From contig CBDANS010000003.1 in the NCBI GenBank assembly GCA_965197745.1, positions 1 to 26,893 of the forward strand: 26,893 bases of DNA. The letters are read 5' to 3'. Positions within the stretch are counted from its first letter, which is position 1. The number at the start of each line of letters is the position of its first letter. The notes beneath the pieces are model-generated. The model saw nothing but the letters and a program-made list of their open reading frames with translations. It was not told where the DNA came from and ran no database searches. The stretch is from Opitutales bacterium (lineage in GTDB: Bacteria > Verrucomicrobiota > Verrucomicrobiia > Opitutales > PNEW01). Of this stretch, positions 2,921 through 26,255 are shown in pieces. Made by a program: the position numbers and the translations under genes.

Positions 2921-3916
2921 TCAATGATCTATACCCCTAATTCCCGGAAACACCTTACCTAATTTATCAAGTTTATCGTGGAGTTCGGCAGGAAGTGGTC
3001 CCGTGGCCGAACATCTCACATTCTCTTCGAGCTGCTCGATCGTTGCCGGGCCCGGGATGACCGCGGTAATGTCGGGATCTGCAAGGATGAATCGCATCGC
3101 CAATTCCGCCAGAGACAGGCCTGATTCCTTTTGAATGTCATACAATGCCCTGAATCGTATTCGCGTATCTTCATTCATCCAAGCCGGGGGATCTTCGAGC
3201 CATTCTTCATGGGGAACGGAGAGACGCCCTTGCTGTAATGGAGTACCGATGATAACACCCACGCCCAATTCATTCGTCAGGGGGAGAAGATATTCTTTGG
3301 CATTACGCCAAATTAAACTGTAGGCAAAGGCCATAAGGACAACATCGATATCCAGGTTTATTTCCTTCAACACTTTGGCCATCAGATGCGCGTTGTTTCC
3401 CGAAATGCCCAGGTAACGGGTCAATCCCTGGTCTTTAACCCACTGTAGAAATTGAGCAACCGGTGAAGCCGCGTAATCGTAGTCAGTATGCAAATCAATT
3501 ACCCGTTTCGATCTTGGGATCTCCATATCTTCCCAGTAAACCGCCCAATCCGCCTCATGAATATAAAAGATGTCCACTGATTCACGTCGGAGATCGTTCA
3601 GGGTGTTTTCGAACTGAACCTTATAAGCATCGATATCGCGGTAAGGACCGGTTTTGAAATCCCAACGACCGCACTTGGTGCCGAGAATATAATCTCCCTT
3701 ATACCCATCGAGCGCTTCACCGAGAACTTCATGCGAATTGTTGTAGAACGGCGAGGCGTCGATATAATTCACTCCAAGCTCGAGCGCGCGCTTTACTACA
3801 CGTATTCCGTCATCCATTTTTACCCCCAATTCATCGGTGATAAAGACACTCCCAAAAGATACCTCGGTGATCGATTGCCCCGTTTTGCCTAAAGCGCGTT
3901 TTTTTATAGAGCTCAT
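2921..3916 (-). CDS. Aldo/keto reductase (sugar dehydrogenase-like subgroup)
   Basis: KRALGKTG, GVNYIDASPFY, TKCGR, IHE, LGISG, GTPLQQG and IPGPATIEQLEEN motifs. Start moved from 3961 to ATG 3916, which overlaps the upstream stop (ATGA). Confidence 0.9.
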   Translation of the reverse strand: MSSIKKRALGKTGQSITEVSFGSVFITDELGVKMDDGIRVVKRALELGVNYIDASPFYNNSHEVLGEALDGYKGDYILGTKCGRWDFKTGPYRDIDAYKVQFENTLNDLRRESVDIFYIHEADWAVYWEDMEIPRSKRVIDLHTDYDYAASPVAQFLQWVKDQGLTRYLGISGNNAHLMAKVLKEINLDIDVVLMAFAYSLIWRNAKEYLLPLTNELGVGVIIGTPLQQGRLSVPHEEWLEDPPAWMNEDTRIRFRALYDIQKESGLSLAELAMRFILADPDITAVIPGPATIEQLEENVRCSATGPLPAELHDKLDKLGKVFPGIRGIDH

Positions 3917-4701
3917 ATACCTAATCCTTTTCGAATAAAATCCCGACTCGCTTGCGCGCATTCAAGGGGCGTCTTGCATCCCATTGGAGCATTCTGCTCC
4001 ACGGTAATCCAGCCACGGTAGCGTTTATCTTTCAGAATCCTGAATACACTGTCATAGTCACAACAACCCGCTCCAACCTCAGTCTTTAACTGGTATTTTT
4101 CTGACCAGTCTTTAAACTCGAGAAAATCAATACGCTCCCAGTTGCGCTCGAGAAAAATTGAGGCGCGTTGCGCGACCGGATGACCAACAAAATCCTGGGT
4201 AGCGTGTCCCACATCGAGGAAACCGAAAAACTTATGGGGATTCGTTTTTCCGATGAGTGATTCCACTTCTTCAAGGGTCTCACCGGCTTGACCTGAATGA
4301 TTGTGATAACAGGCACGAACACCATAGGAAAGGGCAATCTCACCGATACGGTTAAGGATATCGGCTATCATATCCATATCCGCATCTTTTTTCGCCAGAC
4401 CGCCAATCGTCACGAGGTGCTTCGCCCCGAGTTTTTGCATTATCTCGCATACGCGTTTAAGCCGGTCAAAGTCACGATCGATACCGTAGTCGACACTAGC
4501 CAGTGATAAACCTGCGTCATGCAATCGCTCCACAAAATCTGTCTCTTCGGTATAGCGGATCAATTCTCCTTCAAATGTCGCGACCCCGTCATAACCAGCG
4601 GCATTTACTTCGCTGACCCAACTCGGCATCATATCATTGGGGAGGTTGCTGCCCCACATAAGACTCATACACGCGAAATTGATTCCGGGATTATTGGTCA
4701 C
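3913..4701 (-). CDS. Sugar phosphate isomerase/epimerase (xylose-isomerase-like TIM barrel, IolE-like)
   Basis: AGYDGV, YHNH, LDVGHA, EFKDW, EVGAG, YRGWITVEQ motifs. GTG start 3 nt after the upstream stop. Confidence 0.85.
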   Translation of the reverse strand: MTNNPGINFACMSLMWGSNLPNDMMPSWVSEVNAAGYDGVATFEGELIRYTEETDFVERLHDAGLSLASVDYGIDRDFDRLKRVCEIMQKLGAKHLVTIGGLAKKDADMDMIADILNRIGEIALSYGVRACYHNHSGQAGETLEEVESLIGKTNPHKFFGFLDVGHATQDFVGHPVAQRASIFLERNWERIDFLEFKDWSEKYQLKTEVGAGCCDYDSVFRILKDKRYRGWITVEQNAPMGCKTPLECAQASRDFIRKGLGI

Positions 4702-4704
4702 AAA

Positions 4705-5205
4705 TCAAGATGATGCACCAGCCGGTGATGGCCGGGTGAGAAGAAGCTTAAAGATAATAATGTGCGTGACCAACAAAAGAGGAACGATGACGGCGGGAAT
4801 AAAATAGGTCGAACCAAAATGACCCGTTGCGTTGTGACGGAATCCTTGAAACAAGGCATTGAGCAGATCGAGAAACCCGACAATGTTGAAGACCCAAACC
4901 AGGGGTATCGCGATCGAAGCATTGAGACGCAAAGCAAATAATGCGAGCAAGGCCAGGACTGCGGCCAGGAGATCACCATAGGCAGCGGGATTAGCAAAGC
5001 GCGGGTCCAATACCTCAGCGGTGACTCCCTGGATAAGAAATGCCAGGCCGATGTAGCGAAAACCATGTAGAAGCAAGAGCGGAGTGAGCGCGTCTTTTCG
5101 AGATTGCCGGGAAAGCCATGGCATAAAATACCATTTTGCAATCAGGCTATAGCACAATATTCCTATAGCAATACTCAGCGGTAAGAATAAATCAGTTATC
5201 ATCAA
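4705..5205 (-). CDS. Conserved hypothetical integral membrane protein (about 4-5 TM helices)
   Basis: Hydrophobic 166-aa ORF (HGFRYIGLAFL, AAYGDLLAA, WVFNIVGFLDL). AAGGAG Shine-Dalgarno at 5216-5211; start is TTG 5205 or ATG 5202. Confidence 0.8.
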   Translation of the reverse strand: MMITDLFLPLSIAIGILCYSLIAKWYFMPWLSRQSRKDALTPLLLLHGFRYIGLAFLIQGVTAEVLDPRFANPAAYGDLLAAVLALLALFALRLNASIAIPLVWVFNIVGFLDLLNALFQGFRHNATGHFGSTYFIPAVIVPLLLVTHIIIFKLLLTRPSPAGASS

Positions 5206-5484
5206 TTGTACTCCTTATTTTATTGTTTTTACCGATATTAATAGCACCTGAGACAAGAATATACATATGAGAATGATGCGGTGTAGACGTGGCAATAAAT
5301 AATTTAATCAATAAAAATGAGAAATAAACAGCAGGATGAAAACATTAAGCCTTATATAAAAAATCGGATGGTTAAGGTAACCGGGCAACCATGGGAAAAT
5401 CTTTACTTTTTACGCAACAAATGATGGGAATTAGAACCTTTGCACCCCATCCACAGGTTAAAATAACATCGATTAAATAATTCA

Positions 5485-7569
5485 TTGATCAAGACGCTTA
5501 AAATTTTCCTGTTCATTACCGCGCTTGTTAGTGTACCCGTGCATTTACGTTCAGAAATAATAAATCTTCCTGAAATACAGGTGTCCGGTCGCCGTTACTC
5601 AGGAGAAGAATGGAAAAACCCTTACTCTGACACTTTTCTCGAACGCAGCTTTATTGAAACCGCACCCCAGAGAAGACTTGATGATGCTTTAAGAAGTATA
5701 CCCGGATTCAGCCTCTTTCGAAGAAGCAGCAGTCGCGTTGCGCATCCCACAACGCAAGGGGTAAGTCTGCGCAATCTCGGACCCAACGGTGCAGGGAGAA
5801 CATTGGTTTTACTCGACGGTATTCCCCTCAATGATCCCTTCGGTGGCTGGGTATACTGGAACCGTTTACCAGCTGCCGATGTAGAAGGGATAGAAATGCT
5901 CAAGGGCGGCGGTGCCGGTCCGTGGGGGAACGCGGCCCTGGGCGGAGTGATCCACGTGTTCTCCCAACATCCTCAAGATGACTTCGCACTGGTAGAAGCA
6001 TCCGGAGGAAACAGGGGGACATCAGATATTACCCTGACGGCGCAGAATACTTCTGAAGACCTTGATCTATTTATTACCGCCAATCGATTTTCAACAGATG
6101 GCTACCCTATCCTGCGAGAGGATCAAAGAGGGCCGATCGATCGCGACGCATTTTCTGAATCGGAGTTAATTAAAGGCGGTTTCCGCTGGCGCGTCACCGA
6201 TAACAACACCCTGACTTTCCGCGCTTCCTATTTTAATGAAGATCGAGGCAACGGAACTCCGCTAGCCACCAATGACACGGAAGCATACGACGCGAGTGTC
6301 AGTCTGAGCGGTTCAACTCAGAGCAACGATACCACATGGCAAACGCAGTTTTTTTATCAAAACCGTCAATTTCGAAATCAGTTCACTTCCGTTAACGCCG
6401 AACGTGATTCGGAAAATCCCGCGCTCGAACAATTCGATGTTCCCGCGGAATCCTGGGGAGGTAATGCCGTCTTCAATACGTCATGGGGGGGTGCTCATCA
6501 ACTATTAGCCGGTGCAGACGCACGCTATGTCGAGGGTGCTACTAATGAGCGATTCTTTTATACAGATACTTTTTATAACCGCGAAAGGTATGCCGGTGGC
6601 GAACAAACACTCTATGGCTTTTTTCTTGAAGATGTCTGGGAGATGTCACCCGCGTTCAACTTGACGATGGGTGGGCGCATTGATTATTGGAGCATTAATA
6701 ACGGGCGCCGAAGCCAGGTCGACCTGGTGAGCGGTAAAATACTTCGCGATGAAACCTTTCCGGATCGCGATGAATGGGTGGGTGATTTTCGTTTGGGCAT
6801 GAGTTATAACTTCAACGATAACCTGCGAGCGCGCGGCGCCTTTTACACGGGTTTTCGCGCTCCCACCCTCAATGAATTATATCGTCCTTTTCGCGTGCGC
6901 GTCGATATCACCGAAGCAAACCCGCAACTTGAAAAGGAGAGCCTTTATGGGGGAGAAGTCGGACTGGAATATCTAAGCAACGATAATTTCAGTTTCAGGC
7001 TGACCTACTTTCTCAACTATTTAGAAGACCCCATTGCCAACGCCACCATAGGCTTCGGACCGGGACCTGTCGACCCCTGCGGTTTTGTTCCGGGCGGCGG
7101 CACATGCCGCCAGCGGAGAAATCTCGGCCAGGCGCGCATTGGCGGCATTGAAATTGATGGGGTATGGAAACCAACTGAGCAATGGAGTTTTTCCGCCAGC
7201 TATTTATACAGTGACTCGGAAATTACAGACAGCCCTGAGCAGTTAGAACTCGAAAACAATCGTTTAGCCCAATCACCAAAACACATGTTCAGCTTCTCAT
7301 TAGTCTGGACGCCCTCCCCAAAATGGAGAAACAGCATGCAGCTTCGCTATACCAGCAGCCAGTTTGAAAACGATCTCAACACCCTTGAGCTGGATTCCTA
7401 CGCCGTGCTCGACTTTTCAATCGCCTATAAGTTTAATAAAAAATTAGAGGGATTCTTTTCATTAGAAAACGCGTTTGATACAGAATTTGAAACCGGTATC
7501 GCATCCAATGGTCTGGTATCGATCGGGGCCCCCCTGCTAGCCAGTGCGGGGCTACGCTGGCGCTTGTAA
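5485..7569 (+). CDS. TonB-dependent outer-membrane receptor (candidate lanthanide/lanthanophore or PQQ importer)
   Basis: Signal peptide, TonB-box-like EIQVSG, plug (LDDALRSIPG...VLLDGIPLND...IEMLKGGGAGPWGNAALGGVI), barrel motifs GFRAPTLNELY, NPQLEKE and ENAFD. The substrate is inferred from context only. Confidence 0.93.
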   Translation: MIKTLKIFLFITALVSVPVHLRSEIINLPEIQVSGRRYSGEEWKNPYSDTFLERSFIETAPQRRLDDALRSIPGFSLFRRSSSRVAHPTTQGVSLRNLGPNGAGRTLVLLDGIPLNDPFGGWVYWNRLPAADVEGIEMLKGGGAGPWGNAALGGVIHVFSQHPQDDFALVEASGGNRGTSDITLTAQNTSEDLDLFITANRFSTDGYPILREDQRGPIDRDAFSESELIKGGFRWRVTDNNTLTFRASYFNEDRGNGTPLATNDTEAYDASVSLSGSTQSNDTTWQTQFFYQNRQFRNQFTSVNAERDSENPALEQFDVPAESWGGNAVFNTSWGGAHQLLAGADARYVEGATNERFFYTDTFYNRERYAGGEQTLYGFFLEDVWEMSPAFNLTMGGRIDYWSINNGRRSQVDLVSGKILRDETFPDRDEWVGDFRLGMSYNFNDNLRARGAFYTGFRAPTLNELYRPFRVRVDITEANPQLEKESLYGGEVGLEYLSNDNFSFRLTYFLNYLEDPIANATIGFGPGPVDPCGFVPGGGTCRQRRNLGQARIGGIEIDGVWKPTEQWSFSASYLYSDSEITDSPEQLELENNRLAQSPKHMFSFSLVWTPSPKWRNSMQLRYTSSQFENDLNTLELDSYAVLDFSIAYKFNKKLEGFFSLENAFDTEFETGIASNGLVSIGAPLLASAGLRWRL

Positions 7570-7681
7570 TAAGTAATTGGTTGCCAAGATGATAATTATA
7601 AGCAATAGTCATAGTGCGGATTTTAAATCGACGTTTGATTTTAAGCTATTCTATACCTCTATCCTAATAAATTTGAATTTA

Positions 7682-7712
7682 CTTGACAGTATTATCGCTC
7701 AAGCAAAACAGT
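7682..7712 (+). promoter_or_regulatory. Putative xoxF promoter: consensus -35 TTGACA inside a CTTGA-N12-TCAAG inverted repeat
   Basis: TTGACA at 7683-7688; inverted-repeat arms at 7682-7686 and 7699-7703. The -10 is poor. An AGAGG Shine-Dalgarno lies just before ATG 7767. Confidence 0.4.
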
Positions 7713-7766
7713 TTATTTAACCCCATTTTTAAAAGACATAATTATTAAATATAAAAGAGGAAAAAT

Positions 7767-9497
7767 ATGAAGAGGATATACGTAGTTCTAATGATAGTTA
7801 CGATCGCTCTGCCGGGCATTGCCGGGGCAAATGACGAGCTACTTAAACTTCAGGAAGATGACTCTCAGTGGGTGATGCCTGGTAAAAATTATGCCGGCAC
7901 CCGATATAGTCCACTGGATCAGATAAACGGGTGGACGGTTAAAAAATTAAAACCTGTCTGGACATTTTCGACGGGAGTATTGCGAGGACATGAAGGGGCG
8001 CCCTTAGTAGTCGGCGAAACGATGTATGTTCATACTCCTTTTCCCAATATTGTTTACGCTTTAGATTTAAGCAGAGAAGGCGCTCCCATGATATGGAAAT
8101 ACGTCCCCAAGCAGAATGAGGAAGTCATCCCTGTCGCCTGTTGTGACACGGTCAATCGCGGGTTAGCCTATGCCGAGGGTAAAATCTTTCTCTCTCAATT
8201 GGACACCCACCTGGTCGCCTTAAACGCAGAGACCGGGGAAGAAATCTGGAAAGTCAAACAAGGGGATTATCGTCAGGGGATGACGATCACAAGCGCTCCA
8301 TTAGTGATCAAAGATAAAGTGATTTCCGGAATAAGCGGCGGTGAATTTGGGGTCCGTGGTTTCGTGACCGCAAATGACATCAATACCGGGGAACAAGTGT
8401 GGCGAATGTATAGCACCGGGCCGGAGGAAGAAGTCGGTTATCCAGGATCGATGGAAACCTGGAAGGGCGATGAATGGAAAAGAGGAGGAGGCACTACCTG
8501 GGGCTGGTACTCCTATGATCCTGAAATGGATTTACTTTATTACGGCACCGGTAATCCCGGCAGTTGGAACCCCGATCAACGACCCGGAGATAACAAATGG
8601 TCGATGACCATTTTCGCGCGCGATCCCGATACCGGAATTGCAAAGTGGGCTTACCAGAAAACGCCTCACGACGCATGGGACTATGACGGTGTGAATGAAA
8701 ACATTCTCGTAAACCTCAAAATCAATGATGTCTACAGAAAGGTCCTGGTTAACTTTGACCGCAACGGGTTTGGTTACACCATAGATCGTGCCACGGGCGA
8801 AGTACTCGTGGCTGAACCTTTTGTTCATGTGAGCTGGGCAAAAGGAATTGACCTTGAAAGCGGTCGTCCGATCGAAGATCCGACGAAGAGAACGTCATCG
8901 ACTAAAAACACCAAGAAAATCTATCCCGGAGCGATGGGTGGCAAGGACCAACAGCCAGCCTCCTATTCTCCCCTCACCGGTCTCTTCTACGTTCCAACGA
9001 TCAACGTGGGAATGGATTATGAAGGAGTGGAAGTAAAATACCAGGCAGGTCAACCTTATGTCGGCGCCATAGTCCGCATGTTTGCAGGACCCGGGGGAAA
9101 CCGGGGTGAGTTCATTGCCTGGGACGCGACAAAGGGTGAAAAAGTCTGGGGGGTGAAAGAAAATTTAGCAGCGTGGAGCGGCAGTCTTGTTACCGGTGGA
9201 GGCGTTGTCTTTTACGGAACGATGGAGGGCTGGTTTAAGGCAGTTCACGCCACGACAGGTAAAGTACTATGGAAATTTAAAACACCTTCCGGCATCATCG
9301 GCAATCCCATCACTTACAAATATAAGGGAAAACAGTATGTTGCCATACTCTCGGGTGTTGGCGGATGGGCAGGTATCGGCGCCGCCGCGGGAATTGGCGG
9401 GGAAGATCCCACGGCAGGTTTGGGAGCGCTGGGAGCTTTCGCTGACGTTGAAGGCATCAGTAACCTCGGAGGTGTCCTCACCGTATTTTCACTCTAA
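7767..9497 (+). CDS. xoxF: Lanthanide-dependent PQQ methanol dehydrogenase XoxF
   Basis: Signal peptide (AGA/NDELL), vicinal C125-C126 (ACCD), E193 (GGEFGVRG), N263 (GNP), D305-x-D307 (WDYDGVNE; MxaF has Ala at the second Asp), FDRNG and GVGGW. Followed by xoxJ and xoxG, with no mxaI. Confidence 0.96.
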
Positions 9498-9504
9498 GTA
9501 TGAC

Positions 9505-9555
9505 GTGGTATTTCGGGTTCTTGAAAACGACTCCTGGCAAGAACCATTTTACCAC
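9505..9555 (+). other. Stem-loop 1 directly after the xoxF stop
   Basis: GTGGTA/TACCAC plus GGTTCTTG/CAAGAACC with an internal loop and a 14-nt terminal loop. Confidence 0.65.
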
Positions 9556-9577
9556 AATATCACCTCTATTATTAAAT

Positions 9578-9650
9578 GGAGAGGACAGGATTTGGGAACG
9601 GTAGTTAATAATTACCGTTCTCAAAGTAACTGCTCCTCTTCGATTTATTT
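9578..9650 (+). terminator. Long stem-loop 2 in the xoxF-xoxJ spacer (partial terminator or mRNA stabiliser)
   Basis: GGAGAGGA/TCCTCTTC, CAG/CTG and TTTGGGAACGGTAGTT/AATTACCGTTCTCAAA (stem 9578-9641). The mismatches are G-U wobbles, and GATTTATTT follows. Confidence 0.65.
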
Positions 9651-9696
9651 ATATCATAAATTTTATGTTTAAAGAATGTTTGTTCACAGAACTTAA

Positions 9697-10551
9697 ATGC
9701 CAGCTTCAATTTTTAAACGCATGCTGATGGCAACCAAAACTTTCAGCATAAGCGGTCTGTTTCTTCTCTTATCGCCCATTTTATTAATTGGCAGCGCCAT
9801 GAGTGGAGAAAATATTACACCGTTCAGGGTTGGTGTAGATCCCCGAAATCTTCCTTTTTCCAACAATCATTTGGAAGGATTTGAAATCAGGATTGCCGAT
9901 TTGGTAGCCAGAGAACTGGGAACAACCCCCAGTTATGTCTGGTGGGGGCAAAGAAGAGGATTCATTAGAAACACGATGAAAGCCACGCTGAAGGAAGGTC
10001 GATGTGATGTGGTTATGGGTGTTCCTAAAGGCTATGATCTGGTCAGTTGGACTAAGCCTTATTACCGAACTTCCTACGTATTTGTTTATCCGAAAACAAA
10101 GGCATATGATATTAACACCCTGGATGATCCAATTCTTAAGGATTTAAAAATTGGGGTTCATCTGCTTGGCAACGACTATATGAACCCACCTCCTGTTCAC
10201 GAATTGGGAAGAAGAGGCATTGTCGATAATGTAATTGGATATGACACCTTCTACGCGGAGGACAATCCACCGGGCACGATTATAGACGCCGTGGTGAAAG
10301 GTGATATTGATGTGGCCATTGTATGGGGACCGATTGGTGGATATTTTGCTAAAGAACAGAATGTGCCGCTAAATATTGTGCCTGTTCTCTCGAATGAGGA
10401 TGATCTTCCTTTCGCCTTTGATATATGCATGGGAGTCAGACATGGAGAAAAGGAATTAAAGGATCAGCTGGAAGCCATCCTGGATAGAAAGCAGGGTGAA
10501 ATCAGAAATATCCTCGAAGAATATGGAGTCCCGCTTTTACCGATCAATTAA
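9697..10551 (+). CDS. xoxJ: XoxJ/MxaJ-family periplasmic solute-binding protein
   Basis: DPRNLPFSN, GFE.RIA, WWGQRRGFIRNT, GRCDVVMGVP, TKPYYRTSYVFV, IDVAIVWGPIGGYF, MGVR and ILEEYGVP motifs; lies directly after xoxF. The start may be 9721 or 9727. Confidence 0.93.
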   Translation: MPASIFKRMLMATKTFSISGLFLLLSPILLIGSAMSGENITPFRVGVDPRNLPFSNNHLEGFEIRIADLVARELGTTPSYVWWGQRRGFIRNTMKATLKEGRCDVVMGVPKGYDLVSWTKPYYRTSYVFVYPKTKAYDINTLDDPILKDLKIGVHLLGNDYMNPPPVHELGRRGIVDNVIGYDTFYAEDNPPGTIIDAVVKGDIDVAIVWGPIGGYFAKEQNVPLNIVPVLSNEDDLPFAFDICMGVRHGEKELKDQLEAILDRKQGEIRNILEEYGVPLLPIN

Positions 10552-10571
10552 TAGTCTTAGGGACAGCTGTC

Positions 10572-11114
10572 ATGATTATTAAACTTTTAAGCGGTGAAAG
10601 CTACAAACAGGCATTGGTCATAGGTGGGTTGGCTTTTATTGCTTCTTTTATCAGTTCGATAATAGCGCTGGCCGAAAACGAAATCAAGGTGGAAGCAGCG
10701 ATCCCGACTTCTGATGAAGTTTATAAGCGTGTTTATGGTGGCTGGAGATGGTGGCATGTATACTGTTACCGTTGTCACGGATTAGACGCGCTCGGAAGCG
10801 CATTGGCGAGTAATCTTAGAGATTCAATTAAGTTATTAAGTTATGATGAGTTTCTCCAGACTGTTCGTGAGGGAAGGCCGACAAAGGGAATGCAAGCCTG
10901 GAGTGTCCTTCTCGATGATAAGCAGATAACTGATATTTACATTTATGTCATGGCGAGAAGTGATCAAGTACTGCCCGCAGGCAGACCCGATGAAGTCGGT
11001 GAAAATGAGACCCCCTGGATACCCCCCGTTAACTGGCCAACAGAACCATTCCCTGTGCCCAATCCGGAATCGCCGGCGGAAGTTAATGAAACAGTTTCGA
11101 CTGAACCGATTTAG
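10572..11114 (+). CDS. xoxG: XoxG-type monoheme cytochrome c (electron acceptor of XoxF)
   Basis: Signal/TM helix, CYRCH heme motif, axial Met candidate GMQAW, YIYVMARS..VLPAGRP family motif and a Pro/Glu-rich tail. Confidence 0.88.
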   Translation: MIIKLLSGESYKQALVIGGLAFIASFISSIIALAENEIKVEAAIPTSDEVYKRVYGGWRWWHVYCYRCHGLDALGSALASNLRDSIKLLSYDEFLQTVREGRPTKGMQAWSVLLDDKQITDIYIYVMARSDQVLPAGRPDEVGENETPWIPPVNWPTEPFPVPNPESPAEVNETVSTEPI

Positions 11115-11174
11115 TAATGAGTTTGACTTCGCGATGAATTGCTCAGTTCCCATAAATAATTACTGGGCTATTTA

Positions 11175-12494
11175 ATGCAAAAAGGAATATTGCGATTGAG
11201 CAACACCCCTACAATTACGACAGCTTTAGCACGGCTTTTCCCCGGGATTAATGCGCTCATAGCTATGGGAACGGTTGCCTTAATTTTATTGGGACAGGAT
11301 GTCGTATCGGGTAGTTCTCCTGACTCCGACCAGTTGAAAGCGATTAAGATTGGTCATCTCATATCCCGTTTCGGCCCCTTCGTAGCCGAAGGGGAATACG
11401 CCGCAATGGGAGCCCGTCTCGCTCTTGAGGAAGCCAATGTTCTTGCGGGTTTTTTCGGAAAGCGCTTCACCCTCTTAAATGAGAGTATCAGTGAACCGGG
11501 AATGGCGGAGCAAAAAGTCATAAAATTAATTCAGGAAAATAAAGTAACCGCAATTGTTGGTCATGTAGACTCAGTTACCTCTCTGAACATCAGCGAAGTA
11601 ACGCAGAAGCACGGAGTTCCATTTTTCAACTGTGATTCAATCGCCGGTAATTTAAGAGATGGAGACTGTCATCGATACACTTTCCATATTGAAGCGAATG
11701 CCGCAATGTATGTAAGCGCCGTCGGGCAATGGTTAATTCATAAAAAAAATCTCACCCAATGGTTTTTTCTGACGGATAAATCCACTAAAAATAAACTGAT
11801 TTATGAAACAGCGCGGACATATCTTATGAAAGAAAATGGGGAAGAAAGCGGAATCGAGGTAGTGCCAGCTGGTAAATCAAACTATCGCGTTACGCTTAAT
11901 AAGCTTAAGCGGGCTGATCCTGAAGTGGTATTTATCATTATGAATGACGAGGATCAAATTAATTTTCTCAAACAGTATAAAAAGCGTAACCTCCCCTACC
12001 AGGTAGTCAGTGCTCATCTCGATATTGCTAATCTTTGGAATGAAGATACGGTGTCATTAACGGGAGTATGGCCGACAATATGGTATCACGAACTCGTGCG
12101 TTACAGTGCGAGGGAGCTCAACAGCCGATTTTTCAAGAAATACCAAAAGCCCATGGACAGCGCGGCGTGGGCTAATTGGGCTGCGGTAAAAATGCTCGGT
12201 GAAGCGGTGATTAGAACCGAGAGCACGGACGGCTATACTTTGATCAAATACCTGGAAAGCAATCCACCATTTGACGGACACAAAGGACTGGCCCTGACTT
12301 TTCGATCATGGAATCATCAATTAAGACAGCCCATGCACCTGGTTACGCCGAGAACAATACCTGGAGATCGCCCGTGGGATATATTAGAGGTGGTGACCCC
12401 TGTTCCTTTACGCGAAATGAAGACCGATGGCGATCCTTTGGACACATTGGGCACTTCGCAATCTGAAAGTCGTTGTCAATTTGAATCCTTATAA
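11175..12494 (+). CDS. ABC-type solute-binding protein of the PQQ-dependent alcohol dehydrogenase-associated (LutA/Ped-type) family
   Basis: Branched-chain-type periplasmic binding protein with family-specific motifs WAAVKMLGEAV.RT, FDGHKG..LTFRSWNHQLRQP and C-terminal LDTLG...ESRC. The start is uncertain. Confidence 0.85.
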   Translation: MQKGILRLSNTPTITTALARLFPGINALIAMGTVALILLGQDVVSGSSPDSDQLKAIKIGHLISRFGPFVAEGEYAAMGARLALEEANVLAGFFGKRFTLLNESISEPGMAEQKVIKLIQENKVTAIVGHVDSVTSLNISEVTQKHGVPFFNCDSIAGNLRDGDCHRYTFHIEANAAMYVSAVGQWLIHKKNLTQWFFLTDKSTKNKLIYETARTYLMKENGEESGIEVVPAGKSNYRVTLNKLKRADPEVVFIIMNDEDQINFLKQYKKRNLPYQVVSAHLDIANLWNEDTVSLTGVWPTIWYHELVRYSARELNSRFFKKYQKPMDSAAWANWAAVKMLGEAVIRTESTDGYTLIKYLESNPPFDGHKGLALTFRSWNHQLRQPMHLVTPRTIPGDRPWDILEVVTPVPLREMKTDGDPLDTLGTSQSESRCQFESL

Positions 12495-12527
12495 ATACAC
12501 TATAAAAATTTAAGAAATTATACGCTT

Positions 12528-13514
12528 ATGAATAACGGAAATTTCCTATCGGGAACACTAACAATAATTATTGTCTTTGCTTTAGTCTCTTCGGCCCTGT
12601 TTACAAAATCGATAGCAAAGCCTTTAGCTTATGTATCTAACGAACGATCAAACAGTGTGACGGTTATCGATACGGCAACCGACGAGGTGATTGATACTAT
12701 TGCCGTAGGGGCACGTCCACGGGGGATAGGTCTCAACCCCGATGGTGCTGTACTTTACCTGGCCCTCGGCAGAGATGATGCAATAGGTATGGTCGATACG
12801 GCCAGCAGGAAAGAGATCGGTAAAATAATGTCGGGTTCAGATCCGGAAGCCTTCTCTGTGAGTCCGGATGGAAGTAAGATTTATGTATCCAATGAAGACG
12901 CGAACACGGCATCTGTTATCGATTCCAAAACACATCAGATATTAGCTATCATACCCGTTGGTATTGAACCGGAAGGTGTAGCCGTTAGTCCGGATGGGAA
13001 ATTGGTATATGTCACGGCTGAGACAACGCATACCGTATCGGTTATCAACACGACCTCGTTTGAAGTTACTGCCACCATACTGGTAGGGAGTCGTCCCCGT
13101 GCCGCGACCTTCAGTCCGGACGGAAAACGCGCTTATGTCACATCTGAAATCGGCGGCGTTGTTTCAGTCATCGACACCGAAAAAAGTGAGATAACCGATA
13201 CGATAAAACTGGAACACGGTGATACCCCCATTAAAGCGATGGGGGTCGTCGTCAGTCCCGATGGCAAGCAGGTTTATGTTGCAACCGGATGGGCCAACCT
13301 TGTCGCTGTGATAGATGCCGCGACCCATGTAGTGACAGAATATATACCGGTTGGAATGAGGGTCTGGGGACTGGCGCTCACTACCGATGGTAAAAAGCTC
13401 TATACCGCGAATGGCGTCTCCAATGACATTTCAGTCATTGATACCGAGAAGAAAGCAGTAATCGCGACTATTCCCGCAGGCGAGGGTCCCTGGGGAATTG
13501 CTATCGAGAGGTAA
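12528..13514 (+). CDS. PQQ-dependent catabolism-associated YVTN beta-propeller protein
   Basis: Signal peptide and seven about 42-aa blades (AYVSNE, GARPRG, GSDPE, GIEPEG, GSRPR, GMRVWG, GEGPWG). Confidence 0.9.
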   Translation: MNNGNFLSGTLTIIIVFALVSSALFTKSIAKPLAYVSNERSNSVTVIDTATDEVIDTIAVGARPRGIGLNPDGAVLYLALGRDDAIGMVDTASRKEIGKIMSGSDPEAFSVSPDGSKIYVSNEDANTASVIDSKTHQILAIIPVGIEPEGVAVSPDGKLVYVTAETTHTVSVINTTSFEVTATILVGSRPRAATFSPDGKRAYVTSEIGGVVSVIDTEKSEITDTIKLEHGDTPIKAMGVVVSPDGKQVYVATGWANLVAVIDAATHVVTEYIPVGMRVWGLALTTDGKKLYTANGVSNDISVIDTEKKAVIATIPAGEGPWGIAIER

Positions 13515-13624
13515 GGACACAAATAACAAGCTGTAAGTTATAAGGGGTAAAAAGAGACTCTATATAAAGGGATTCTGTTTTTCTTCTTGATATTAATGCT
13601 AAATTTGATTGTTTGTAGCCGCTT

Positions 13625-13825
13625 ATGACTATCGAGGAATCCAAACCGAGCAGCCAATCGAAAAACCCCTCTAATATGACGGAGATGGACGTAGAGGCTC
13701 TTTCGCGTTACGTAACCGACACGGGAAAAATCCTGGCACGCCGTATTACCGGGCTCACAGCTAAGCAGCAACGCCATATCACCAAGACAATCAAGCGAGC
13801 GCGCAATTTGCTGCTTATGAAGTAG
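13625..13825 (+). CDS. rpsR: 30S ribosomal protein S18 (short, Cys-free form)
   Basis: [35 protein letters not shown]. Confidence 0.96.
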
Positions 13826-13886
13826 TCCCTTATAAATTTCAGGATGAGAAAAAATCATCCTTTAAAACCGTCTATATCATAATATC

Positions 13887-14888
13887 TTGACGAGGATTTA
13901 CCGGGACCGACCTGAAGACATTGCCCAGGTCATCAATCTTTTATCAGAAGGTAGTGTTGTCGCAGTACCTACTGAGACCGTTTATGGTCTTGCTGCCGAC
14001 GCATTCAACGAAGAGGCCACCCGGCAGATTTTTAAGATGAAAGGACGCCCTTTCATTGATCCCTTGATTGTCCATACCCACGATCTGGAAGGAGTCAGCC
14101 GTATCGCCTCACTAAACAAAGCGGCGGTAAATCTCGCAGACAAGTTTTGGCCCGGCCCTTTGACAATAGTCCTTCCCAAAAAACCTGGAGTGCCAGCCAT
14201 AGTCACTGCCGATCTAAATACGGTAGCCGTTCGTATGCCGAAGCACCCTGTCCTGCGTAAGGTGCTTGAAGACTCCAGACTTTGTCTGGCCGCGCCCAGC
14301 GCTAATCCGTTCGGTTATCTAAGCCCGACAAGAATAGAACATGTGCTCGAATCCCTGGGTGAATTACTGGAGTATGCGCTCGATGGCGGTCCCTGCCCTA
14401 TTGGCATGGAGTCAACAATCATCGATGTCAGCAATCCAGAAAAGCCTGTCTTATTACGCCCTGGCGCCATTACCGTCGAGATGCTGAGTGAAGCAGTGGG
14501 ATTACCCATAGCAATCAATATCCCCAGGCATAAAGCCGCGTTAAAAAGACCCGAAGGGATGCCGGCCCCCGGCATGTTGCAAATGCATTACAGCCCCAAT
14601 ACCCCACTGATCATACTGGAACCCGGTAAATCGTCAGATAAAACAGACCTCCCTAACACAGCAGTAGTATATTTCAATCGCAAGGGGTCACAACCCACCC
14701 TAAAAAACGCGCGTGTTTATTGGCTGACAGAAGACGGAGATCTAGCCCAAGCGGCACGTAACCTGTATCATTTATTGCGGGCCATAGACGGCCAGGGTCA
14801 TGACACTATATATATCGAAGCGGTGCCTGAAGAAGGGATAGGAGCAGCTATCGTTGATCGAATAAAGCGAGCCTCTAAAGGTAATTAA
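13887..14888 (+). CDS. tsaC: L-threonylcarbamoyladenylate synthase (Sua5-type, YrdC + SUA5 domain)
   Basis: PTETVYGLAA, KGRP..DPLIVH, FWPGPLT, VAVRMP, AAPSAN, GMESTI, LLRPG and APGM...HYSP linker. TTG start. Confidence 0.95.
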   Translation: MTRIYRDRPEDIAQVINLLSEGSVVAVPTETVYGLAADAFNEEATRQIFKMKGRPFIDPLIVHTHDLEGVSRIASLNKAAVNLADKFWPGPLTIVLPKKPGVPAIVTADLNTVAVRMPKHPVLRKVLEDSRLCLAAPSANPFGYLSPTRIEHVLESLGELLEYALDGGPCPIGMESTIIDVSNPEKPVLLRPGAITVEMLSEAVGLPIAINIPRHKAALKRPEGMPAPGMLQMHYSPNTPLIILEPGKSSDKTDLPNTAVVYFNRKGSQPTLKNARVYWLTEDGDLAQAARNLYHLLRAIDGQGHDTIYIEAVPEEGIGAAIVDRIKRASKGN

Positions 14889-14914
14889 AAAACGGTCAGT
14901 ACCGCACCTTCGAC

Positions 14915-16231
14915 TTATTCCCCGGTTTGAGTTGCTTCGGATGGTTGCTTTAACACTTTCACCTGGGCTGATATCACTCTTGTCTCGTCGACCTCAGTAA
15001 CCGTGATATCCAGACCGTTAAACTTGAGTTTTTCGTGCGCCTGGGGGATATGACCGAGTTCCGCAGTAATAAGTCCGCTCACCGTTGATACCTCTTTATT
15101 CTCAATATCTATAGTAAGGATTTCTTCGAATTCATGTATTGGGGTGAGACCTGAAACGAGGTAAACATCCTTATTAAGCTGCTTAATCTGATCTTCTTCG
15201 TAATCAAATTCATCCTGGATCGACCCAACCAGGGTTTCAAAAATATTTTCCAGGGTGACGACGCCGGCCGTTCCCCCGAATTCATCGAGAACGAGGGCCA
15301 TATGCGTTCGCGAAATGAGCAGTTTTTGCAAAACCTTGTCGAGAGTTTCGTCGGTCATTACCCTGATGATGTCACGCTTGACCTGACGTAAATCGAGTTT
15401 TGATTTATCATCCGTAGAGCGAAAAATATCCTTGATATGAACAATGCCTAAGCACTGATCAAGGTCTCCTTCACAGAGAGGAAACCGTGTATGCCCTGTT
15501 CTTCGGGCTAATTCGATATTTTCTTCAATACTGTCATTAAGATCGAAAAACTGTAATTGATTGCGTGGCAGAATCACATCCTGAACGGTACGATTATGTA
15601 ATTCCAAAGTATTTTTAAGGGTCTTCTGTGCTACAGGAGAGAAGGACGGCATATCATCACCCAGAGATTGGAGTTGTGCTTCTATATCGAGAGTCTCCAG
15701 TTGCGCCCCAGGTTTAATTTTGAAAATACGTAATATTATTTGGGAAATCTGAGTGAGTAAATAAAGGAAGGGTCTGGTTATCAGTGAGACAATTTTAACA
15801 GCCCAGGCGGAACTGCGCAATGCCTGTACGGGGTACTGAAGCGCGAGCTCCCTGGGGATTAATTCACCAATCAGGTTGTGTGCACAGACAGCGGCAATAA
15901 ATGAAATCATGATAGAGACAGGTTCGATAATTCCTATACCGAAGAGCTCAAGTTTATTAAGGTAGTTTGCGATTATCGGGAAGAGGAGGACGCCATAACC
16001 GATAGTACAGGTGATTATACCCAGGCGTACCACTCGAATGGTTAAGTCAGCATGATCGAGGAGAAGAGCGAGACGTTTGTTTTCTTTTAAACGATCAAGC
16101 ACATCCTGATTGAAATGGCTGAAACGCAGCTTGATAAGACTGAACTCACAGGTAACAAGCAGCGCATTAAGCAGGAGCAACCCCAGGATACTAGCGAGAC
16201 GATATGTAAATTCTAAGTAAGCTGGGTTCAC
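14915..16231 (-). CDS. Hemolysin-family CNNM + CBS pair + CorC/HlyC membrane protein
   Basis: N-terminal TM domain (EFSLI, GELIP), HTRFP, GIVHIKD, HMALVLDEFGGTAGVVTLENIFE.LVG.IQDEFD and CorC C-terminus. Confidence 0.93.
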   Translation of the reverse strand: MNPAYLEFTYRLASILGLLLLNALLVTCEFSLIKLRFSHFNQDVLDRLKENKRLALLLDHADLTIRVVRLGIITCTIGYGVLLFPIIANYLNKLELFGIGIIEPVSIMISFIAAVCAHNLIGELIPRELALQYPVQALRSSAWAVKIVSLITRPFLYLLTQISQIILRIFKIKPGAQLETLDIEAQLQSLGDDMPSFSPVAQKTLKNTLELHNRTVQDVILPRNQLQFFDLNDSIEENIELARRTGHTRFPLCEGDLDQCLGIVHIKDIFRSTDDKSKLDLRQVKRDIIRVMTDETLDKVLQKLLISRTHMALVLDEFGGTAGVVTLENIFETLVGSIQDEFDYEEDQIKQLNKDVYLVSGLTPIHEFEEILTIDIENKEVSTVSGLITAELGHIPQAHEKLKFNGLDITVTEVDETRVISAQVKVLKQPSEATQTGE

Positions 16232-19483: not shown

Positions 19484-20056
19484 TTATTCTTTTCTGTTAC
19501 CCCTGGGCTTTAAGGGCTCACAGGGATTTCCGACACATATCATGTCGTCAGGCATGTCCTTAGTGACAATAGAGCATGCACCAATGACAGAGCCGCGGCC
19601 GATTCTTATCCCGGGTTGAATAAATGCCCGCGCCCCTATAAAGGCATCCTCACCAATGGTGATTTTTCCTGTTCTTAGAGGGAGAGCGGGATCATCAAAG
19701 TTATGGGTGCCGGTGCACAGATAAGCTTCCTGGGCAACTGTGGCCCTGGCCCTAATTTCAATCTCTCCAAGGGTGTAGGCGTTTGATCGATCGCCGAGAC
19801 ACGCGCGGTCATAAAGCGTTAAATTCCAGGGAAGAGCAATGCGCGCCCGCTGGTGGACAAACGGGTATCCTTTGATAGTAGCACCAAAAATCCTCAGCCA
19901 GATAAGTCGCCAGAAGTTTAAAGGTTTTGGAGTCCATCGACACAAAATTAACCAGCAACAATCCCATAAGAACATGCCTATCCGTTGGCCAGACGTCCAT
20001 GGACTCTGGTATGCCTTTTCCTGATCAGCACTTGGAATTGTCGTTTTCTTATTCAT
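19484..20056 (-). CDS. WcaF-like hexapeptide-repeat acetyltransferase
   Basis: WTPKP..FWR..WLRIFGA, PWNL, YLCTGTH and hexapeptide repeats ending GNP. Confidence 0.9.
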   Translation of the reverse strand: MNKKTTIPSADQEKAYQSPWTSGQRIGMFLWDCCWLILCRWTPKPLNFWRLIWLRIFGATIKGYPFVHQRARIALPWNLTLYDRACLGDRSNAYTLGEIEIRARATVAQEAYLCTGTHNFDDPALPLRTGKITIGEDAFIGARAFIQPGIRIGRGSVIGACSIVTKDMPDDMICVGNPCEPLKPRGNRKE

Positions 20057-21183
20057 AGACTAGCGGTCGAAGAAAAATCATTTAGATATAATTTCGCAAT
20101 CTTTACTAATGCGTATTGTTCAGCCGTTTTTCGGGCTTCAAGAGACGCGCCCTTCAAGGTTTCACGGTCTTCGAGCACAGTGACAAGTTTGGCCGATAAT
20201 TTTTTTTCCGGTTCCGATTCGCGATGATTAAAAATAAACCCATTTATATTTTCCTTCACGAAATCCTTAAAACAATCCAGGGCTGAAACTAATACCGGAC
20301 AACCGAAAGCCATCGCTTCAAGCGGGGCCAAACCGAATGTTTCTCCTTTTTCCGCTATCGAGGGATAGAGGAACAACGCGGCACCTCGGTATAAATCGGC
20401 CAACTTTTCCTGGTCAAAAACGGGTCCCGTCCAATCGAAATTACACTCACTGTCTGAAGCCATTTTTTTTAAATAATTAAAATACGATTGCCCCCCTCCA
20501 CCCTGGGAAACTTCCCACGGTCCGACCATGCGGACAAGTAAATTTTTTCGCATTGATAGGTTTAATAAAGCTACAGATTTAACCAATAGATCCAGACCTT
20601 TCTCGGGATGTATCCGACCTGCATAAAGCAAAGTTAGTGGATCCGTTGATTTTGAGCGATTATCCGATTCAGCTATGGGTGGCAGGTTGACCGGATAGGG
20701 AATGACTTTTATTTTATTTTTTAATCCAGGAGCTTGATTTACCATTTCATCGGCAATGGGCTGTGACACCGTTTGCAGTCGAGCAGCACGACGATAATAC
20801 TTAAGCTGACCCTTGGGGTAGCGCCCTACATGCACATACAGTTTACCGAATTTAGGATTTCGAACGAGAACCGGTAACCAGAAAGTGTTAGTTACCAGTA
20901 TGTCTGCGGATGGCAAAATCCTGCGCACTTTAAGTGAATAAAGCAGATCATAGAGTTTCAACGACAACAGTGAACGCGGAGTGGCATAACCCGCTATTCT
21001 CCTGTAGCGCACCCTATCAACATCTTCCTCCTCGGGTAAACCGGGATACTGACGTGATAAATGGGTGACCGCGTGCCCCTGTCGGGCAAATTCGCGGCCA
21101 AGGCTATACCACACTTTTTCCACCGCCCCACCCAACAATGGGGGGACAGGCAGGAAAGCTCCTTGCACAATGGTAATTTTCAT
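20053..21183 (-). CDS. Glycosyltransferase family 4
   Basis: GGAVEK, YAGRIHPEKG and ETFGLAPLEAMAFG motifs. Confidence 0.93.
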   Translation of the reverse strand: MKITIVQGAFLPVPPLLGGAVEKVWYSLGREFARQGHAVTHLSRQYPGLPEEEDVDRVRYRRIAGYATPRSLLSLKLYDLLYSLKVRRILPSADILVTNTFWLPVLVRNPKFGKLYVHVGRYPKGQLKYYRRAARLQTVSQPIADEMVNQAPGLKNKIKVIPYPVNLPPIAESDNRSKSTDPLTLLYAGRIHPEKGLDLLVKSVALLNLSMRKNLLVRMVGPWEVSQGGGGQSYFNYLKKMASDSECNFDWTGPVFDQEKLADLYRGAALFLYPSIAEKGETFGLAPLEAMAFGCPVLVSALDCFKDFVKENINGFIFNHRESEPEKKLSAKLVTVLEDRETLKGASLEARKTAEQYALVKIAKLYLNDFSSTASL

Positions 21184-22364: not shown

Positions 22365-22393
22365 AATTTTATTAACAGAGAAAGGAAGGCTGT

Positions 22394-24936: not shown

Positions 24937-24942
24937 AATGAG

Positions 24943-26181: not shown

Positions 26182-26255
26182 ATAGATGATACAGGTTTCA
26201 AGGACTGAACTTATTCCGTCCCTGAATATAATGATGATGCGTAAATGAAATTAGA

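Follow-up and report, generated by a model that had tools for sequence, protein, structure and literature searches.

The window analyzed here, a 26,893-nucleotide contig from an Opitutales bacterium, carries six linked genes that probably make up a chromosomal module for methanol oxidation in the periplasm, centred on a lanthanide- and PQQ-dependent XoxF3-like enzyme; its heterotrophic host would scavenge both PQQ and lanthanide, and would draw extra energy from methanol rather than use it as sole carbon source. In our alignments XoxF holds every metal and cofactor ligand and is followed by XoxJ and a c-type cytochrome, and its constant companions in three Opitutales families are a TonB-dependent receptor, a binding protein and a propeller of the PedA2 type. 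Judging from sequence, lanthanide-dependent methanol oxidation is most likely the reaction that XoxF carries out.

ORF coordinates and profile searches confirm the six co-oriented genes reported in a first-pass annotation of the window. These occupy positions 5485-13514 of the plus strand and stop 110 nt before rpsR (13625-13825, plus strand), a 66-aa ORF for ribosomal protein S18 that belongs to the downstream flank, outside the module, and shares 90-92% identity with its counterpart at the syntenic locus in each of three related genomes (G060, G032 and G083). All six proteins begin with a hydrophobic stretch, as judged directly from their sequences, and are putatively exported. Among the Opitutales genomes examined, eight others carry the six genes as a linked set, and in a ninth (G171) they are split over two contigs. 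This recurrence rules out a chance arrangement, and its extension across three Opitutales families (f1, f18 and f26) is possibly a new observation. The description of the host as Opitutae-like is borne out, as the window genome (G000) shares its GTDB order with two Opitutales MAGs, G076 and G171. No island signal is visible in composition, GC being 0.42-0.51 across the module and 0.456 for the contig. Scans of positions 5100-14000 returned 10 promoter-like sites where 15.2 are expected and three terminator-like sites where 8.6 are expected, none of them on the plus strand between genes, and are uninformative on transcription units; no RNA run is listed among the sequencing runs holding the stretch.

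The xoxF gene (7767-9497, plus strand) codes for a 576-aa precursor of a lanthanide-type PQQ methanol dehydrogenase, as indicated by profile, PDB matches, motif and trees. It scores 708.5 bits against TIGR03075, the methanol/ethanol PQQ dehydrogenase family, over the cut-off of 480.05. The lanthanide D-x-D motif previously reported is indeed there, as D305-Y-D307 within WDYDG (precursor positions 304-308), and alignment to the solved enzymes 6oc5 and 4mae indicates that the active-site Glu, Asn, Cys-Cys and Arg are kept, together with FDRNGFGY. XoxF enzymes in the PDB match with 736 (6oc5), 732 (4mae) and 729 (6dam) bits, MxaF-type enzymes with 540-614 bits, and ethanol dehydrogenases with at most 379 bits; by these scores the enzyme is closer to characterised XoxF than to either of the other two kinds. 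The second of these structures, 4MAE, is the XoxF2 of the verrucomicrobial methanotroph Methylacidiphilum fumariolicum SolV, which shares with the window's enzyme the family, the metal and PQQ ligands, and the phylum of its host. Across Opitutales families XoxF is 80-88% identical, with all ligands kept.

Downstream, xoxJ (9697-10551, plus strand) encodes a periplasmic MoxJ-like binding protein (TIGR03871, 285.1 bits, cut-off 212.15); in 75 of 80 related loci, a homologue comes after xoxF. The next gene (10572-11114, plus strand) encodes an XoxG-like monohaem cytochrome c of 180 aa, which matches PF13442 (33.8 bits) and has the haem c motif CYRCH, but reaches only 57 bits against TIGR03874, below the cut-off of 161.75. 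Loci of Acidobacteriota and Opitutales have homologues of this cytochrome, with 55-69% identity, in the equivalent place, and a cytochrome homologue is found downstream of xoxF in 30 of the 80 loci.

Of 401 genomes sampled from the order, 10 have an XoxF orthologue. In our phylogenies, built as quick trees with neither bootstrap nor AU test, these orthologues form an Opitutales clade (SH-aLRT 92-93) within a 28-row clade (99) that holds 18 Acidobacteriota rows, Gemmatimonadota being the next neighbours. The enzyme accordingly sits beside Acidobacteriota XoxF, the kind termed XoxF3, a name that we take from taxonomic neighbours, without labelled XoxF3 references. The verrucomicrobial methanotrophs differ: XoxF of their pmoA-bearing family (f44) is 59-61% identical and falls in a separate clade (support 100), grouped with a Methylomirabilales row. 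The first-pass annotation had seen an affinity to NC10/XoxF1-type loci, both in the XoxF sequence and in the F-J-G gene order, and had proposed lateral acquisition. Neither sign gains support, as the tree puts both of the Methylomirabilota rows (59% and 66% identity) into clades other than this one, and XoxJ follows XoxF so generally in this part of the family that the order is not diagnostic. What survives is a foreign origin of the module, which is plausible given the few genomes with orthologues and the position of the clade as sister to Acidobacteriota XoxF and not to the pmoA-bearing verrucomicrobial methanotrophs; an affinity to NC10 is not supported.

Metabolic profile searches covered five genomes, two of them single-contig, and are given as matches over cut-off; the window genome is 92% complete, so that gene absences lean partly on its relatives. 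The earlier idea of a self-contained module is contradicted by these searches, as pqqB, pqqC, pqqD and pqqE are over cut-off in none of the five genomes and a formaldehyde pathway was not found (Fae and GSH-formaldehyde dehydrogenase, 0/5 each). A PqqU-family receptor at E ≤1e-30 is likewise missing from all five. Candidate PqqC matches in family f1 (68-77 bits) correspond to a Haem_oxygenas_2/TENA ORF adjoining a pterin-binding (folP-like) gene, and candidate PqqE matches (120 bits) to generic radical-SAM proteins, far under cut-off. Hps is over cut-off in none of the five, and a match of 147 bits (cut-off 200), seen in f1 only, was rejected as a RuMP enzyme, the E. coli control also matching. 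RuBisCO was found in none of the five genomes and pmoA in none of three Opitutales searched, which sets the host apart from verrucomicrobial methanotrophs and, along with the lack of Fae, supports the claim of a lanthanide-type XoxF module in a non-methanotrophic heterotroph. The proposal that methanol is released from methyl-esterified polysaccharides finds no support in CE8 pectinesterase (0/5 genomes). By contrast, the alpha subunit of formate dehydrogenase, formate-THF ligase (FTHFS) and the haem-copper oxidase subunit COX1 are each present in all five genomes.

From this inventory we infer a cell unable to make PQQ that would have to obtain PQQ as well as a light lanthanide from outside. 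One of the two, more likely lanthanide or its chelate, would cross the outer membrane through the receptor, and the binding protein and propeller would form a periplasmic complex handling that cargo; as the enzyme works in the periplasm, a step across the inner membrane would be unneeded. XoxF would convert methanol to formaldehyde or formate, with electrons passing via XoxG to haem-copper oxidases, and formate would either be oxidized to CO2 by an NAD-type formate dehydrogenase or enter the folate pool. It is the lack of RuBisCO, of a confident RuMP enzyme and of an H4MPT pathway that suggests a role for methanol in energy supply and not as sole carbon source.

The fifth gene (11175-12494, plus strand) encodes a LivJ-like (type I) periplasmic substrate-binding protein (SBP; PF13458, 164.8 bits) that is PedA1-like by context. 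Its best NCBIfam match is TIGR03863 (PedA1-type), at 152.4 bits and below the cut-off of 413.6, and its PDB matches are Leu/Ile/Val-binding-type proteins, PqqT not being among them. The sixth (12528-13514, plus strand) encodes a PedA2-type YVTN beta-propeller (TIGR03866, 347 bits, cut-off 287.3), with 65% mean column identity over 12 orthologues. A propeller over this cut-off is found in 11 of the 401 genomes of the order: it accompanies XoxF in 10 of 10 genomes, and occurs in only one of the 391 without XoxF, a relative (G083) where xoxFJG is deleted. This confinement is possibly a new point. Possibly new as well is the predicted binding of the SBP and propeller to each other, in a complex modelled from custom 12-row alignments: ipSAE is 0.84 in three runs versus 0.33 for the best control (the ipSAE mark is reached by 116 of 157 solved complexes versus 2 of 215 mismatched pairs), contacts agree to at least 92%, partner pLDDT is at least 92, and the predicted interface is built from residues invariant in both families.

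The lanthanide importer PedA1A2BC is described in P. putida (PMC12997753), and a TonB receptor is part of the Lut set (LutABEFGH) of Methylorubrum extorquens, as it is here. However, besides an SBP below its family cut-off, the Opitutales system differs in that the searches recovered neither an ABC ATPase nor a permease of that type, the PedB ATPase model TIGR03864 being over cut-off in none of the five genomes (best in the window genome, 168.5 vs 302.25) and the PedC permease model TIGR03861 matching in none at E ≤1e-10; such genes therefore do not encode cytoplasmic import. The label of Lut/Ped-type uptake given to these genes is thus sound for the propeller, and not for the SBP or for a complete ABC transporter. 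We tentatively raise the possibility that the receptor, the LivJ-like SBP and the PedA2-type propeller make up a delivery line confined to the periplasm, without inner-membrane transporter, where the conserved acidic interface of the modelled SBP-propeller heterodimer would hold lanthanide (or a lanthanide-PQQ pair) and pass it to XoxF. If true, this would be the first assigned role for the PedA2/YncE propeller family. The trio may also serve another client besides XoxF, as it is intact in the relative that has lost xoxFJG.

The first gene of the module (5485-7569, plus strand) encodes a TonB-dependent outer-membrane receptor of 694 aa, with plug (PF07715) and barrel (PF00593) domains. It reaches the cut-off of no NCBIfam model, scoring 51.5 bits against the PqqU model NF041535 (cut-off 1200), and its best PDB sequence match is CirA, with 55 bits. 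Orthologues with at least 50% identity are present in 13 of the 401 genomes, nine of which have an XoxF orthologue; in eight of these nine the receptor is encoded within the xoxF locus, and in G171 its gene adjoins the propeller gene, on the other contig. Lone copies, 52-55% identical and in unrelated contexts, occur in two genomes without XoxF or propeller (G025 and G051), and rule out the receptor as a strict marker of XoxF. Homology does not fix its substrate; we favour lanthanide or a lanthanide chelate as cargo, PQQ being possible.

Were PQQ the cargo, the receptor, together with the propeller or with both propeller and SBP, would be a PQQ importer and lanthanide would enter by another route, which we consider rather unlikely. 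Some PQQ route is needed, given the lack of both pqq genes and a PqqU-family receptor in the genomes searched. Moreover, E. coli, itself without PQQ synthesis, offers a parallel in PqqU (YncD), a 22-strand TonB receptor whose gene in K-12 diverges from the neighbouring yncE, coding for a YVTN propeller 23-28% identical to that of the module, and PqqU with PQQ (9c4o) heads the Foldseek matches of the receptor model (E 9e-28, TM 0.71), followed by FhuA (2e-26). However, this AlphaFold2 model, obtained from nine sequences, has a mean pLDDT of 61, with the plug below 50, so that the ranking is only a weak hint, and lanthanide TonB-dependent transporters likewise match PqqU best while lacking its PQQ residues (preprint 10.64898/2026.07.10.737718). 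In an alignment made weak by 17% identity, Tyr99 of PqqU falls in a three-residue gap in all nine receptor orthologues, and neither Arg304 nor Arg365 is matched by Arg; an invariant Arg stands one column away from Arg304. The SBP is also unlike PqqT, and the characterised relatives of the propeller are those at work in lanthanide uptake (PMC12997753).

The enzyme may be questioned in its turn. According to PMC10875860, activity, metal and substrate data exist for no XoxF3-type enzyme, and, as the host has no recognisable formaldehyde pathway, the physiological substrate might be an aldehyde or a different alcohol, for instance formaldehyde or ethanol. We regard this as unlikely in view of the 729-736 bits reached with the three solved XoxF methanol dehydrogenases, far from the scores against ethanol-type enzymes, and of the XoxJ and cytochrome genes downstream, as in methanol systems. 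The module is dispensable, since xoxF is lost in 3 of the 11 genomes that bear the module or its remains: in G136 it is 5'-truncated with an in-frame TAG, in G057 it is split by an IS (DDE_Tnp_1), and in G083 it is deleted along with xoxJ and xoxG, leaving the receptor-SBP-propeller trio intact. Such losses, along with a host that does not make PQQ, could suggest that in the window genome, too, the module is a remnant in decay that no longer functions, but this is very improbable, as all six ORFs are intact there and in G032, G060, G017, G117, G076 and G097, and XoxF keeps every ligand and its high identity across families. It is less credible still that the contig belongs to another organism and was misplaced in binning or assembly, even if it stands as a separate 26.9-kb contig in a seven-contig genome: of 44 chunks, it lies closest to the genome mean in tetranucleotide composition, synteny is complete from the TPR gene to rlmD within large contigs of two same-family genomes (2.16 Mb in G060 and 4.49 Mb in G032), and single contigs from other studies' runs cover positions 3000-16000. 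Both junctions of the module, flagged earlier as possibly chimeric, are real, being bridged by contigs in sequencing runs from three studies.

Neither the class of enzyme, nor its spread to non-methylotrophs, nor PQQ scavenging is new, and verrucomicrobial XoxF3 systems with TonB transporter, XoxJ and XoxG are already in print in a study of soil Verrucomicrobia, Acidobacteria and Gemmatimonadetes (Voutsinos et al. 2024, BMC Biol; PMC10875860). The systems it describes resemble ours in a lanthanide-motif XoxF followed by XoxJ and XoxG, in the TonB-dependent transporter co-located in Verrucomicrobia MAGs, where XoxG is nearest to the Acidobacteria type, in a 'YncE' propeller and TonB named in the cluster figure legend, and in hosts many of which lack PQQ synthesis (16 of 38 genomes are able). 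They differ in companions such as a mechanosensitive channel and cox/ctaG, neither among the window's genes, and that account does not present the SBP-propeller pair as a unit. Its text and three supplements use phylum labels only, 'Opitut' occurring 0 times, and a full-text literature search found no paper in which 'xoxF' and 'Opitutales' appear together. The module would thus extend lanthanide-dependent methanol oxidation to Opitutales, polysaccharide-degrading heterotrophs, and points to a cell that depends on its community for PQQ and lanthanide. With a receptor, an SBP and a propeller, and neither ABC parts nor PQQ synthesis, it also offers a simple system for the roles of PedA1/PedA2-type proteins. 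Finally, the module described here could help explain the unexpected 13C-methanol labelling of Opitutus-like bacteria in a probing study whose own MAGs of Verrucomicrobia are reported without methanol dehydrogenase (PMC7065363).

The six ORFs at 5485-13514 all lie on the + strand, and all six products begin with a hydrophobic N-terminal segment, as read off the sequence by eye. First comes the gene for a TonB-dependent receptor (Plug and barrel domains). It is followed by xoxF, whose product is a PQQ dehydrogenase belonging to the methanol/ethanol family (TIGR03075, 708.5 bits; cut-off 480), by xoxJ, coding for a MoxJ-like protein (TIGR03871, 285 bits against a cut-off of 212), and by genes for a XoxG-like cytochrome c (180 aa, haem motif CYRCH), a periplasmic binding protein of LivJ-like type (SBP; PF13458, 165 bits), and a YVTN propeller (TIGR03866, 347 bits; cut-off 287). 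rpsR (66 aa) begins 110 nt after the propeller gene. XoxF contains WDYDG, the D-x-D of lanthanide enzymes, and retains the active-site Glu, Asn, Cys-Cys, and Arg in alignments with solved XoxF. Three solved XoxF match it in the PDB at 729-736 bits, versus 540-614 for MxaF-type chains and at most 379 for ethanol dehydrogenases, and it is the sole protein over the TIGR03075 cut-off in the genome. Everything that the first-pass annotation had observed here (six co-oriented genes, the gap to rpsR, the D-x-D) is correct.

Among the best 80 of 586 XoxF relatives examined in species-representative genomes, the closest belong to two Opitutales MAGs (79-82% identity), followed by Acidobacteriota (72-78%), while those of Gemmatimonadota, Binatia, and Methylomirabilota share 59-67%. 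In quick maximum likelihood trees (87 and 92 rows, SH-aLRT support only, the fragment of less than 450 aa from locus L065 being left out), the eight Opitutales rows form one clade (support 92-93), sister to a 20-row, mostly Acidobacteriota clade (joint support 99), with Gemmatimonadota next. The kind of XoxF found in Acidobacteria and Gemmatimonadetes is named XoxF3 in the literature (PMC10875860), and from the taxonomy of its tree neighbours we infer that the window's enzyme is probably a XoxF3. The suggested affinity to NC10 did not hold, the two Methylomirabilota rows being of a different type. Nor is the xoxF-J-G gene order diagnostic, since it is general among the 80 loci examined: XoxF is followed by a XoxJ homologue in 75 of them, and a XoxG homologue turned up in 30.

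A phylum-wide sample of 401 genomes gave XoxF matches at E <= 1e-150 in seven: the window's genome, one other Opitutales (50% identity), and all five members of the verrucomicrobial family f44 (59-61%). Each of two f44 genomes searched has three to four copies of pmoA and none was found in G000 (the window's genome) or the relatives G032 and G017, so f44 is the methanotroph family. Its XoxF form a separate clade (support 100) grouped with a Methylomirabilales row; the window's enzyme is thus not descended from the verrucomicrobial methanotroph line.

The genome consists of seven contigs (4.45 Mb, 92.3% complete, 1.4% contaminated), of which the window is all of contig C3, and the tetranucleotide profile of C3 is the nearest to the genome mean among 44 equal-size chunks. 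The XoxF search of 401 genomes of the same GTDB order found matches in G076 and G171, at contig coordinates identical to those of L011 and L015, two loci under the NCBI title Opitutales bacterium; the host is therefore an Opitutales, as the proposed Opitutae-like background had anticipated. One gene order (a TPR gene, SCO4226-like, PhnZ-like, the six genes, rpsR, sua5, corC-like, hisC, rlmD) is common to the window, a 2.16-Mb contig of G060, and the 4.49-Mb single contig of G032, all of one family. Moreover, Logan contigs from runs of three studies bridge both module junctions: single contigs cover 3000-16000 in X3 (no differences; this may be the source run) and X4 (15 differences), and 4937-16000 in X1. 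With this synteny and these contigs, the junctions are not chimeric, and a chimeric assembly at the locus is ruled out.

At 8249-8614, inside xoxF, contigs of runs X3 and X5 match just 21-nt flanks with 358 differing letters between them, and their most likely source is a different XoxF-bearing organism present in these samples. The PhnZ-like gene (2290-2868) codes for an HD phosphonate oxygenase scoring 209 bits on TIGR03276, slightly below the cut-off of 214.6. An exopolysaccharide cluster occupies 19484-26891, with four GT4 glycosyltransferases, a WcaF-like acetyltransferase, and an FkbM methyltransferase. Where the window has 110 nt between the propeller gene and rpsR, G060 has an extra gene for a PhyH-family dioxygenase (250 aa; L100 5860-6612).

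Gene content was searched in five genomes (G000, G032, G060, G017, and G117; G032 and G017 are single contigs). None has PqqB, PqqC, PqqD, or PqqE over cut-off; the module, which had been claimed to be self-contained, is therefore not so, and must obtain PQQ from outside. No PqqU-family receptor matches at E <= 1e-30 in any of the five either. Such dependence is common: PQQ synthesis is reported in just 16 of 38 XoxF genomes (PMC10875860), and PQQ scavenging as widespread (PMC12124388). All five genomes possess the alpha subunit of NAD-type formate dehydrogenase, formate-tetrahydrofolate ligase, and two haem-copper oxidases each. Fae, glutathione-dependent formaldehyde dehydrogenase, pectinesterase, RuBisCO, and Hps (147 bits for a match in family f1; cut-off 200) were over cut-off in none of the five. 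As the search for assimilation enzymes, which covered RuBisCO and Hps, found no pathway, methanol most likely serves as an auxiliary electron donor. Weak PqqC-like matches were rejected as PqqC: the protein concerned is haem-oxygenase-like, and its gene adjoins a folP-like one. In G000 this PqqC/TENA-like ORF (243 aa; contig C6, L108 1501-3051) lies directly upstream of the pterin-binding, folP-like gene, and may resemble the chlamydial CADD-type p-aminobenzoate synthase.

Concerning the receptor, which reaches no NCBIfam cut-off and whose best PDB sequence match is CirA (55 bits), we favour import of a lanthanide or lanthanide chelate over PQQ or something else, with roughly even confidence. 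Import of PQQ appears rather unlikely. PqqU bound to PQQ is the top Foldseek match of the receptor model, although by a narrow margin and with a low-confidence model (pLDDT 61), and according to a 2026 preprint PqqU is also the top match of lanthanide receptors in which the PQQ residues are missing. Against PQQ, the receptor scores 51.5 bits on the PqqU model (cut-off 1200). All nine receptor orthologues have a three-residue gap where E. coli PqqU has Tyr99, and Arg304 and Arg365 are unmatched, in a weak alignment with an invariant Arg just one column away from Arg304. A lead in favour of PQQ comes from E. coli, where pqqU and yncE, the gene for a propeller of the same superfamily, are divergently oriented neighbours. 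In E. coli K-12 pqqU (yncD) and yncE occupy L126 8964-12369, and YncE shares 23-28% identity with the window's propeller; YncE does not occur in the PqqU paper.

XoxF orthologues of at least 79% identity are present in 10 of the 401 genomes sampled from the order, which belong to the three Opitutales families f1, f18, and f26. Members of f18 and f26 have the genes arranged as xoxF-J-G-SBP-propeller-receptor, and in f1 the receptor is placed ahead of the other five. The propeller family is over cut-off in 11 genomes, exactly these ten plus G083 (f1, 82% complete), which retains intact receptor (699 aa), SBP (417 aa), and propeller (319 aa) genes on a single contig with the window's synteny (L123, C65 2991-7413); xoxF, xoxJ, and xoxG are cleanly absent and the receptor gene abuts that of the SBP. 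Elsewhere, xoxF of G136 (L125, C9 9130-10455) lacks its first ~150 codons and has an in-frame TAG, and that of G057 (L105, C3 10321-11783) is split by a ~1.4-kb insertion encoding a DDE_Tnp_1 transposase and a DUF4372 protein, so xoxF has been lost in 3 of 11 lineages. The linkage of the receptor to XoxF is less strict than that of the propeller: 13 of 401 genomes have a copy with 50% identity or more, and nine of these 13 also have a XoxF orthologue. The copies in G025 and G051 are solitary, with unrelated genes around them, and 63 further genomes have weaker relatives (33-42%). In one XoxF-less Opitutales, a propeller (G303:C1:3379442-3385153; TIGR03866 221 bits, below cut-off) and a paralogue of the receptor (37% identity) are ~3 kb apart, which may represent a second receptor-propeller pairing.

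XoxF3 systems with a TonB transporter, XoxJ, and XoxG were reported in five Verrucomicrobia MAGs (Voutsinos et al., 2024; PMC10875860), and share the first two of these components, and a XoxG-like cytochrome, with the window's module; according to a figure legend of that study, clusters of Acidobacteria and Gemmatimonadetes include TonB and a YncE-type propeller. Our full-text search found no paper with both xoxF and Opitutales, and one paper with 'methanol dehydrogenase' and 'Opitutales' names the terms apart. A six-gene set fixed across three Opitutales families, and a natural deletion retaining the uptake trio, may be new. The module might also have an ecological link to the unexplained 13C-methanol labelling of Opitutus reported in soil (PMC7065363).

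The propeller shares its family name with PedA2 of P. putida, which imports lanthanide into the cytoplasm together with the binding protein PedA1, PedB, and PedC (PMC12997753); in M. extorquens, LutA, LutE, and LutF act with the receptor LutH (PMC7391723). In contrast to these systems, the window's module has the periplasmic half and the receptor only, and in the five genomes no PedB-type ATPase is over cut-off and no PedC-type permease matches at E <= 1e-10. Complex prediction with SBP residues 50-439 and propeller residues 30-328 (12-row alignment each) gave an ipSAE of 0.84 in three of three runs (best control 0.33), with contact agreement of at least 92% and partner pLDDT of at least 92. 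Of 157 solved complexes 116 attain this ipSAE mark, as do 2 of 215 mismatched pairs, counts that are rough given our own alignments. The model supports binding of the two proteins to each other, through a predicted interface whose invariant residues are E86, E343, R347, F366, D367, and G371 of the SBP and E123, E147, E165, T169, R189, E207, and I208 of the propeller. No PDB entry is common to their match lists, so it is unlikely that the prediction recalls a solved SBP-propeller complex. This predicted complex, with no ABC partner found, may also be new.

The SBP is similar to Leu/Ile/Val-binding proteins and unlike PqqT, which binds PQQ. Its orthologues in genus g50 (L104 7405-8634 in G097; L125 11952-13238 in G136) and in a Gemmatimonadetes MAG (L066 4483-5790) have a twin-arginine-like start (RRGFL / RRAFL), and the f1 copies an ordinary hydrophobic leader.
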